Below are positions 52,734 to 53,804 of a stretch of 64,000 nucleotides of DNA, piece after piece. The notes under the pieces are model-generated. The model saw nothing but the letters and a program-made list of their open reading frames with translations, made no database searches and was not told the origin of the DNA. Each line of letters begins with the position of its first letter. Position 1 is the first letter of the stretch. Origin of the DNA: Escherichia coli (GTDB lineage Bacteria; Pseudomonadota; Gammaproteobacteria; Enterobacterales; Enterobacteriaceae). The stretch lies in the NCBI RefSeq assembly GCF_009931435.1, contig NZ_CP043414.1. One strand, written 5' to 3'. A program made the translations under genes and the position numbers.

Positions 52734-53804
52734 ATGGCTAACGCCTGGCTCAGATTATGGCATGACATGCCAAATGACCCTAAGTGGCGAACAATTGCCA
52801 GGGTGTCAGGGCAGCCAATTGCAACAGTGATGGCAGTGTATATCCACCTCCTGGTGAGCGCGTCACGAAATGTCACGCGAGGTCACATTGATGTCACGAC
52901 AGAAGATTTGGCAAGTGCGCTCGACGTGACAGAAGAGGTAATTGATTCAATTTTGCAGACGATGCAGGGGCGGGTACTTGATGGTGATTTAATCACTGGA
53001 TGGGAAAAACGCCAGGTGCTTAAAGAGGACAACGGCAATATTTCGCAAACCGCAAAATCTCCTGCAGAGCGCAAGAGGGCGCAGCGAGAGAGGGAAAGAA
53101 AGCGGGAACAAAATGGCGATTGTCACGGCGCATCACGAAATGTCACGCACATGTCACGACGAGTCACGACAGATAAAGATACAGATAAAGATACAGATCA
53201 AGAAGATCAAAACACTATGGTCCATGGCGTAAAAAACGCTACGAACCAGGCAGGGGATGTTCAGACCGTCAATCCTGGTCAGCCAGCAGGCACGACACCG
53301 GAAGCCGATTCAGCGTATGCGCTGAAACCCGATTCGGGCGCTGTGCAGCAGGTGATGACCCAAAGGCCGGAACAATCACACCAACTGCAGCAGCCTGAAG
53401 CCGATTCCGCCATTCAGCGGGAAGCCGATCGGGTAGTCCCGGAAAACACCGGGCTGTCTGTGGGACGAGTGGATTATCCGGATGTGTTCGAACAGGTCTG
53501 GCGGGAGTACCCGTTGCGTGCCGGAGCAAACCCGAAGAAATCCGCTTTCAGTGCCTGGAAGGCCAGATTACGCGAGGGGGTGCCACCAGAGGCCATGCTG
53601 GATGGCGTGAGGCGTTACGCAAGATACTTGGCGGCTACCGGGAAAACGGGAACGGAATTTGTTCAGCGAGCGACGACGTTTTTTGGACCGGACCGGAATT
53701 TTGAGAACCCCTGGTTGCTCCCGGTAAGCGGCACGAACAACCAGCGTTGTGTGAATCATATTTCTGAACCGGATAACGAAATTCCGCCGGGCTTCAGGGG
53801 GTAA
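52734..53804 (+). CDS. phage replication initiator (YdaU/DUF1376-like, lambda O functional analogue) containing internal iterons
   Basis: About 356 aa with AAGAGG 5 nt upstream of ATG 52734. Conserved N-terminus WLRLWHDMPNDPKWRTIA. Low-complexity acidic central part. No P-loop. Confidence 0.5.
   Translation: MANAWLRLWHDMPNDPKWRTIARVSGQPIATVMAVYIHLLVSASRNVTRGHIDVTTEDLASALDVTEEVIDSILQTMQGRVLDGDLITGWEKRQVLKEDNGNISQTAKSPAERKRAQRERERKREQNGDCHGASRNVTHMSRRVTTDKDTDKDTDQEDQNTMVHGVKNATNQAGDVQTVNPGQPAGTTPEADSAYALKPDSGAVQQVMTQRPEQSHQLQQPEADSAIQREADRVVPENTGLSVGRVDYPDVFEQVWREYPLRAGANPKKSAFSAWKARLREGVPPEAMLDGVRRYARYLAATGKTGTEFVQRATTFFGPDRNFENPWLLPVSGTNNQRCVNHISEPDNEIPPGFRG
52860..53215. repeat. iteron-like repeats (TGTCACG / GTCACGA units in two clusters) plus a tandem GATAAAGATACA x2 / GATCAAGAAGATCAA repeat: candidate prophage origin inside the initiator gene
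   Basis: Cluster 1 at 52861-52903: cgtcacgaaatgtcacgcgaggtcacattgatgtcacgac. Cluster 2 at 53131-53171: catcacgaaatgtcacgcacatgtcacgacgagtcacgac. The second is followed by gataaagatacagataaagatacagatcaagaagatcaa. Confidence 0.5.

Follow-up and report, generated by a model that had tools for sequence, protein, structure and literature searches.

A putative iteron-type replication origin within the initiator gene of an Escherichia coli prophage

Introduction

Where does the prophage carried in this stretch of Escherichia coli DNA begin its vegetative replication? The window analysed here is the whole stretch of 64,000 nucleotides (nt) from contig NZ_CP043414.1 (assembly GCF_009931435.1), and the locus in question is a replication-initiator gene at 52734-53804, in which an earlier note, made from the letters alone, had pointed out two clusters of GTCACG repeats and suggested an origin embedded in the gene. 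On sequence evidence, we consider it probable (roughly 0.78) that 52.86-53.25 kb is the vegetative iteron-type replication origin of the prophage, lying inside the gene of its own initiator. The role given to each of the two repeat arrays is less certain than the iteron-type origin as such. The arrangement of an origin within an initiator gene is already known from lambda and SPP1; here it would occur in a large protein family in which we found no published description of it, and the features of its own are a second array within the part of the gene that codes for the N-terminal domain and the lack of a helicase-loader gene. Literature searches on GTCACG iterons, replisome-organizer origins in E. 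coli prophages, 'DnaT-like' phage proteins and Eru replication types found no description of this origin.

Two helix-phased hexamer arrays in the initiator gene

The features that make up the proposed origin are as follows.

52734-53804, plus strand: initiator ('phage replisome organizer') gene, 356 amino acids (aa), from the list of open reading frames, phrog_3729 and the NCBI names of homologues
52862-52898, plus strand: iteron array 1, GTCACG at 52862, 52872 and 52893 and GTCACA at 52882; encodes the loop SRNVTRGHIDVT, aa 44-55
52925-52930, minus strand: inverted hexamer copy (CGTGAC on the plus strand), 27 bp downstream of array 1
53122-53168, plus strand: iteron array 2, GTCACG at 53122, 53142, 53153 and 53163 and ATCACG at 53132; encodes CHGASRNVTHMSRRVT, the start of the linker
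53169-53215, plus strand: A+T-rich, purine-rich stretch, ACAGATAAAGAT twice at 53169-53192 and then GATCAAGAAGATCAA; encodes DKDTDKDTDQEDQ
53218-53248, plus strand: imperfect inverted repeat TGGTCCATGGCGT-AAAAA-ACGCTACGAACCA, directly 3' of the A+T-rich stretch

The gene holds eight exact GTCACG copies and two one-off variants (GTCACA at 52882 and ATCACG at 53132), the variants being in register with the other cores. The cores follow one another in steps of 10, 10 and 11 bp in array 1 and of 10, 10, 11 and 10 bp in array 2. GTCACG occurs 34 times in the window, where 25 copies are expected; eight exact copies within 307 bp compare with 0.12 expected (Poisson P ~1e-12), and nowhere in the 64 kb except in these arrays do at least three copies fall within 60 bp. 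The two arrays share a block of 21 nt, GCGC[G/A]TCACGAAATGTCACGC, which is 95% identical, and a second block of 11 nt, GTCACGACAGA, which is 100% identical, both at an offset of exactly 270 bp. These counts and shared blocks agree with the earlier note, which had described two clusters about 270 bp apart with 4-5 copies each; its account of what follows the second cluster was also accurate, and the peptide readings that it gave, ASRNVTRGHIDVTT, ASRNVTHMSRRVTT and DKDTDKDTDQEDQ, are correct on translation. Among 53 distinct close relatives, 49 have G at position 53132, giving a perfect GTCACG, and the ATCACG of the window is the minority allele.

Within the window the hexamer is translated as SR, VT, GH and VT, and because it falls in all three codon phases, the repeats are a signal at the level of DNA, not of peptide. 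The protein was modelled with AlphaFold2 (AF2) from a 17-sequence alignment (mean predicted local distance difference test, pLDDT, 56; good confidence only at aa 10-90 and 245-325). In this model, array 1 (aa 44-55) spans a loop at aa 47-52 with pLDDT <50 between two confident helices of the N-terminal domain, and array 2 codes for the opening residues of a disordered linker (aa 129-244, 115 residues). Since a loop and a disordered linker are encoded there, the protein probably sets hardly any limit on the sequence at either array. Arg49-Gly50, which array 1 encodes, is almost invariant in the protein.

The 47 bp that adjoin array 2 (53169-53215) are 70% A+T vs 46% for the gene and 72% purine, and the gene's top 40-bp A+T window, which falls in them, stands at the 98th percentile of the window. 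This stretch is the presumed DNA-unwinding element. The inverted repeat beyond it is strong in relatives that share the window-type C-terminal module (L002, z -5.0; L006, z -6.9), and a scan for inverted repeats 3' of array 2 found 15 of 51 genes with z >=2 vs mononucleotide shuffles, which is suggestive only. DnaA boxes were not found above chance.

Two further details concern this part of the gene. Two GATC (Dam) sites, at 53196-53199 and 53205-53208, close the A+T-rich stretch, and AAAGATCTAAAA is found at the same place in relatives L003, L005, L006, L012, L020 and L030. Many family members have a palindrome at the place of the inverted repeat, with 4-nt loops (tgac, tggc, tgcc) and unrelated stem sequences.

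Conservation of the arrays across the family

The DNA used for comparison came from 4 divergent full-length homologues and 55 genomic loci of gamma-, beta- and alphaproteobacteria and some metagenome-assembled genomes; 56 genes were usable. At least three cores lie at gene nt 100-240 in 39 of the 56 and at nt 320-520 in 40. The earlier note had made its proposal depend on conservation of the repeats in homologous initiator genes, and indeed arrays stand at the same positions in 39-40 of the 56. Among the core-to-core distances across the family, 148 are of 10 bp, 37 of 11 bp and 15 of 20 or 21 bp, and the cores are spread over the codon phases as 125/120/86. An opposite-strand hexamer is present at the same gene position (nt 180 or 192) in many homologues.

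The core itself is GTCACG, GTAACG or CGAACGC according to lineage, and it never differs between the arrays of a gene. Comparison of sister genes that are 64-71% identical, L031 with GTCACG vs L004, L032 and L013 with GTAACG, demonstrated a C/A switch at >=10 homologous copies across both arrays within the first 540 nt. Three proteobacterial classes share the core but not the linker sequence around it. At both arrays, homologues that differ in length do so by 7 codons, that is 21 nt or two iteron units, 21 nt being the smallest number of 10.5-bp units that preserves the reading frame. The A+T content of the 40 nt after array 2 is 60-78% in almost every homologue, including those from GC-rich hosts and those whose gene has an A+T content of 31-40%, and this stretch is of the type (GATAAA / GATACA / GAGAAG)n.

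This conservation of position, phasing and layout, with concerted change of the core, is the behaviour that would be expected of sites bound by the encoded protein. Both arrays of a gene often have identical inter-core spacers (over 21 nt in the window and 38 nt in L003), which shows duplication or gene conversion. Gene conversion alone could keep the arrays alike, but not the position, phasing and core conserved across three proteobacterial classes. The layout of two arrays, the concerted core change, the A+T-rich stretch and the DNA-level signal thus lend support to the origin-in-initiator-gene pattern that the earlier note had put forward.

Two side observations were made in the same comparison. 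The sites of the L031, L004, L032 and L013 subgroup also make the palindromes GTCACGTGAC and GTAACGTTAC. In L048:3001-4191 and L060:3001-4305, the same N-terminal domain is joined to a different middle region which has no hexamer arrays, carries ACTACGTA-type repeats and reads YYVYYVA...GISxNPWAR, being GIY-YIG/T5orf172-like by eye only.

The initiator protein and its modular relatives

The gene starts at ATG 52734 rather than at the in-frame GTG 52728, because the homologues all begin MAN(A/S)WLRLWHDMPNDPKWRT. Its product matches phrog_3729, 'replication initiation protein', end to end (E 1.1e-255, aa 1-356 to profile 1-356), and the homologues, as well as the window protein, carry the name 'phage replisome organizer' in NCBI sources. 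Phage_rep_org_N (PF09681) aligns with aa 5-123 (profile 1-119 of 121) at 16.5 bits, below the cut-off of 23.3, and TIGR01714 scores 15.4 vs a cut-off of 49.8; just 2 of 40 family members match Phage_rep_org_N at E <=0.01. Searches of Pfam and NCBIfam with the whole protein, the N-terminal domain set and the C-terminal domain set gave no significant family besides the sub-threshold Phage_rep_org_N and a DnaT tail described below. Judged by these matches, the initiator is of the 'phage replisome organizer' type (phrog_3729; sub-threshold for Phage_rep_org_N). Two parts of it are predicted to be folded.

52734-53003, plus strand: N-terminal folded domain, aa 1-90, helices and a beta-hairpin (AF2 pLDDT ~80-89, conservation, sub-threshold Phage_rep_org_N)
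53466-53708, plus strand: C-terminal helical domain, aa 245-325 (AF2; phrog_1701 'DnaD-like helicase loader', E 1e-62)

The N-terminal domain is highly conserved, the first 130 residues of the protein matching 2260 clusters (50% identity clusters, E <=1e-3), and aa 1-90 are the presumed origin-binding domain.

Other family assignments were tried and rejected. The comparison with lambda O that the earlier note had drawn holds as an analogy of layout but not as family membership: the Phage_rep_O profile (PF04492) has no match even at E up to 10. The alignment with YdaU/DUF1376 proteins proposed alongside it also came to nothing, the profile matching neither the window protein nor the protein of Shigella phage 75/02 Stx. 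An AAA+ initiator or loader (DnaA, DnaC, IstB) is ruled out by the lack of a Walker A motif, [AG]xxxxGK[ST], in the initiator and of any AAA+ Pfam match, in keeping with the remark in the note that the protein has no P-loop.

Comparison with relatives demonstrated that the repeats travel with the N-terminal domain. The C-terminal module is 82% identical at the nt level to that of the 75/02 Stx gene (L002), whose N-terminal half differs. The repeats of that gene are GGGGCTTC, in two clusters ~250 bp apart and in opposite orientation (4575-4600 and 4826-4850), the second of which is followed by a (CAGGAA)n linker coding for QEQEQE and a strong palindrome; this is the same two-cluster layout with another repeat specificity. 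Similarly, L063:2601-3563 and L064:2598-3563 are E. coli prophage initiators with the same synteny yet with other N-terminal domains, and their linker repeats are TTGACCC[G/C]TCAA, in four copies (read as DPSTVDPSNIDPS...), and GGTCAAAATG, in three to four; an A+T-rich stretch comes after each of these sets.

Conversely, the window-type N-terminal domain with its arrays is also joined to other C-terminal domains, and the downstream gene changes along with them. In relatives, a DnaC/IstB-like gene follows the window-type C-terminus, a lambda-P-like gene follows the DnaT-like (PF17948) C-terminus and others, and a DnaB helicase or a primase-helicase follows further C-terminal types. This modular pattern fits a two-part initiator, in which an origin-recognition module carrying its own sites would be combined with a helicase-recruitment module matched to the loader. 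In O157-type prophages (L145:3501-4992), a true DnaT-like single-stranded DNA (ssDNA)-binding domain (PF17948) follows the same N-terminal domain with its arrays, and the lambda-P-like gene overlaps the 3' end of the initiator gene by ~90 nt.

Operon context and the DnaT-type tail

The initiator gene is the third gene of a pR-like early operon, and its neighbours are listed here.

51919-51946, plus strand: pR-like promoter, upstream part of the operon
51972-52253, plus strand: cro/YdaS-like gene, upstream in the operon
52237-52662, plus strand: cII/YdaT-like gene, upstream in the operon
53845-54270, plus strand: DUF977 / Ren-like gene, immediately 3' of the initiator, where relatives have a helicase-loader gene

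Transcription from the pR-like promoter region runs through both arrays. As the earlier note had stated, no DnaC- or P-like loader gene follows the initiator, and tblastn found no DnaC-, P- or DnaB-like reading frame anywhere in the 64-kb window, which is a real departure from the relatives. Of 5426 complete E. coli genomes, 1540 (~28%) have the loader-less junction of initiator and DUF977 gene, and so do deposited phage genomes, e.g. Tritos and Evi. Further along the early-right region, after the DUF977 gene, a DUF5677 protein of 345 aa (phrog_27456, unknown function) is encoded at 54486-55523, where Tritos has other genes.

The end of the initiator resembles that of a host primosomal protein.

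53736-53801, plus strand: last 22 aa (NNQRCVNHISEPDNEIPPGFRG), like the C-terminal tail of the host primosomal protein DnaT (NCBIfam, PDB DnaT chains)

The NCBIfam DnaT model is matched at positions 156-179 of 179 (E 7e-4, 19.3 bits vs a cut-off of 201), and the last 17-22 residues (VNHISEPDNEIPPGFRG) are nearly identical to DnaT (PDB 6aep, 2ru8, 9zbt_D), with the pattern VNxxSEPDxxIPPGFRG. On the DnaT side, the match takes in its final 19-24 residues. PDB sequence searches with profiles of both initiator domains returned only this tail. The motif IPxGF(R/T)G is retained in homologues at 45-60% identity, and a DnaT-type tail also ends the initiators L002, L063 and L064, whose N-termini are unrelated. 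Membership of the initiator in DnaT was rejected: only the tail matches, the N-terminal and three-helix ssDNA-binding domains of DnaT were not detected in it, and PF17948 has no match.

DnaT is thought to deliver DnaB-DnaC to the restart primosome (PMC5778457, PMC13377028), and no defined function for its C-terminal tail was found in the literature searched (including PMC5778457, PMC13377028 and PMC4132743). From the match, we infer that the tail may recruit host DnaB-DnaC, or PriA. A bolder proposal, which we regard as doubtful, is that the initiator is an origin-targeted stand-in for host DnaT, that its tail engages the restart partner of DnaT (DnaB-DnaC or PriA) and that the inverted repeat may extrude as a hairpin resembling a primosome-assembly site. 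If true, this would explain how a common loader-less and helicase-less E. coli prophage lineage replicates, unlike its relatives with DnaC-like, P-like or DnaB genes, and the DnaT tail would be the long-sought contact for helicase recruitment in restart.

Proposed mechanism and points against it

The layout and the analogy with lambda and SPP1 suggest the following course of events. Derepression would lead to transcription from the pR-like promoter and thus to synthesis of the initiator, whose conserved N-terminal domain would bind the GTCACG hexamers, which a spacing of 10-11 bp would place on one face of the helix. The main assembly would form on array 2 (five sites) and destabilise the adjoining 47-bp A+T-rich stretch, beyond which the inverted repeat lies. 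The C-terminal domain and the DnaT-like tail would then bring the host DnaB-DnaC helicase complex, host recruitment being proposed because a loader gene is missing from this phage lineage. Array 1 (four sites and one inverted copy, 270 bp upstream) may be auxiliary, either looping to array 2 to form a larger nucleoprotein complex or titrating or handcuffing the initiator as a control locus.

Several observations weigh against an initiator-bound origin at this place. No demonstration of binding or of origin activity was found for any family member in the literature searched, and no columns of the N-terminal domain separate the three iteron classes. Array 1 is missing in L042 and L056 and hardly any array is present in L034, L036, L046, L050 and L051; because some members have reduced arrays or none, the arrays are not obligatory for the protein family. 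Among the 53 close relatives, polymorphism is 2/60 nt (3.3%) in the cores vs 94/1011 nt (9.3%) in the rest of the gene, a difference which is not significant, the numbers being small, and the near-identity of the spacers between arrays also fits gene conversion over per-base selection. The inverted repeat of the window is weak (-5.3 kcal/mol, z -1.7). Finally, Foldseek of the AF2 model vs PDB returned nothing below E = 1, just faint winged-helix regulators, and because none of these matches is significant, a winged-helix label for the initiator is not established.

Alternative explanations

Among the alternatives, the one that survives best, improbable as we judge it, is that the arrays are operator-like autoregulation sites, not an origin, at which bound initiator blocks the elongating RNA polymerase and so limits synthesis of itself and of the downstream products. 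The arrays do lie inside the transcribed pR-like operon, and array 1 has no A+T-rich neighbour and is absent from L042 and L056, which keep array 2; it must therefore be dispensable for whatever array 2 does. In addition, second iteron arrays serve as control loci in plasmids (P1 incA), which we count in favour of this explanation. Autoregulation could also apply to array 1 alone, beside an origin at array 2. As an account of both arrays, however, it leaves unexplained the conserved A+T-rich, purine-rich stretch and the palindrome by array 2, as well as the agreement with the proven oriL of SPP1 in layout and in position within the gene (PMC5737612). Moreover, such a prophage needs an origin, and the window has no other cluster of at least three GTCACG within 60 bp.

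Still less probable is that the repeats bind another protein, a host factor or a phage protein such as a cII/YdaT-like regulator, for recombination, packaging or transcription control. The failure to find residues of the N-terminal domain that co-vary with iteron class would fit this, as would the YdaT-like gene, which is syntenic in all enterobacterial relatives examined. However, the arrays accompany the N-terminal domain across three proteobacterial classes and in many downstream gene contexts, and where that domain is swapped (75/02 Stx, L063, L064), the repeats are swapped too while the flanking genes are unchanged. DnaA boxes at no more than chance frequency also argue against a host factor of that kind.

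Least probable is a by-product of coding or of local duplication or gene conversion (a peptide repeat or a low-complexity linker with no DNA-level function): the identical inter-core spacers within one gene (21 nt in the window, 38 nt in L003) and the nearly invariant Arg49-Gly50 speak for it, but a period of 10-11 bp does not divide into whole codons, SR, VT and GH are all readings of one hexamer, three classes share the core without sharing the linker around it, the C/A switches are concerted at >=10 copies, and the codon-phase analysis, with cores in all three phases, largely refutes the peptide-repeat form, which we reject.

Significance

With an origin inside the initiator gene as the favoured explanation, the analysis would show where replication probably starts in a module that ranks among the commonest of E. 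coli prophages, with ~28% of complete genomes carrying it. Origins elsewhere in the family, which numbers at least 2260 protein clusters, could then be located by a simple rule: look for a pair of phased hexamer arrays at set places in the gene, with (GATAAA)n after the second. The gene would be a case of overlapping codes, in which a DNA signal with a 10.5 bp helical repeat is written in a reading frame and gained or lost in 21-nt, 7-codon steps, and such a signal would be tolerated since it falls in the codons of a loop and a linker. The GTCACG, GTAACG and CGAACGC classes and the sister genes, in which all copies have switched, provide natural material on the joint change of an initiator and its site specificity, and the iteron classes may define incompatibility groups among co-resident prophages. 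The combination of a DnaT-type tail with the lack of a loader gene gives a lead, open to testing, on how the phage may hijack helicase loading by the host.

Elsewhere in the window, Rfam matches above the gathering score were found at 50259-50310 (minus strand) and at 55941-56115, 59593-59985 and 62496-62881 (plus strand). The families matched are the DicF small RNA, the sok antitoxin RNA of the hok/sok locus and two cspA-type thermoregulator leaders, and these RNAs are typical cargo of Qin/Rac-like prophages.

Comparison with known systems

The likeness to DnaT is confined to the last 17-22 residues, and some annotators name these phage proteins 'primosomal protein I'. In contrast to the window protein, a sister group with the same N-terminal domain has a true DnaT-like domain (PF17948), which is followed by a lambda-P-like gene.

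Iteron plasmids (P1 oriR/incA, R6K, pSC101) also have helix-phased direct repeats bound by a plasmid-encoded Rep and an A+T-rich neighbour, and the second array of P1, which lies across repA from the first, governs copy number through titration or handcuffing and is a possible model for array 1. However, the plasmid arrays flank the rep gene and are not inside it, they usually cooperate with DnaA boxes, which the origin region of the window does not have above chance, and the Rep families differ.

The operon of the prophage follows the lambda gene order of cro, cII, initiator, (loader) and ren-like gene. Gene O of lambda contains four iterons and an A+T-rich region of 39 bp (PMC6022878), and the proposed origin is likewise in the initiator gene of a pR operon with iterons followed by an A+T-rich region. 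The differences are that lambda has a single array of four 18-19 bp inverted-repeat iterons, each bound by an O dimer, whereas the window gene has two arrays of 6-bp cores every 10-11 bp, mostly direct; that lambda needs its own P protein, whereas the window has no P-like gene; and that the window protein is no member of Phage_rep_O (PF04492). Two further likenesses are that lambda has a palindrome on the right-hand side of its A+T-rich region and that its origin encodes a flexible linker of O. Lambdoid phages exchange the N-terminal domain and iterons together, and the C-terminus matches the loader, as in the family of the window gene.

The oriL of SPP1 lies inside gene 38 and consists of direct repeats bound by G38P and an A+T-rich unwinding element, a 356-bp fragment being necessary and sufficient in vitro (PMC5737612, PMC6316719). 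In the sequence of gene 38, 11-bp repeats are found at gene nt ~358-420, followed by an A+T-rich stretch to ~480, which is the same place as array 2. In both systems, the origin is, or is proposed to be, within the organizer gene, with repeats of ~11 bp period ~360 nt into it, after the N-terminal DNA-binding domain, and then an A+T-rich element. Both initiators have no AAA+ or P-loop module, both would be bipartite, with the N-terminus binding the origin and the C-terminus contacting the helicase or loader, and in both, one protein would serve two separate repeat regions (oriL and oriR in SPP1). On the other hand, the N-terminal domain profile has no detectable homology to G38P (hhalign probability 0.1), the repeat sequences are not the same, SPP1 codes for a loader (G39P) and a helicase (G40P) and this prophage for neither, and oriR is ~13 kb away whereas the second array here is 270 bp upstream in the same gene. 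By analogy of layout, G38P/oriL of SPP1 is a better-matching precedent than lambda O for the putative origin in this initiator gene.

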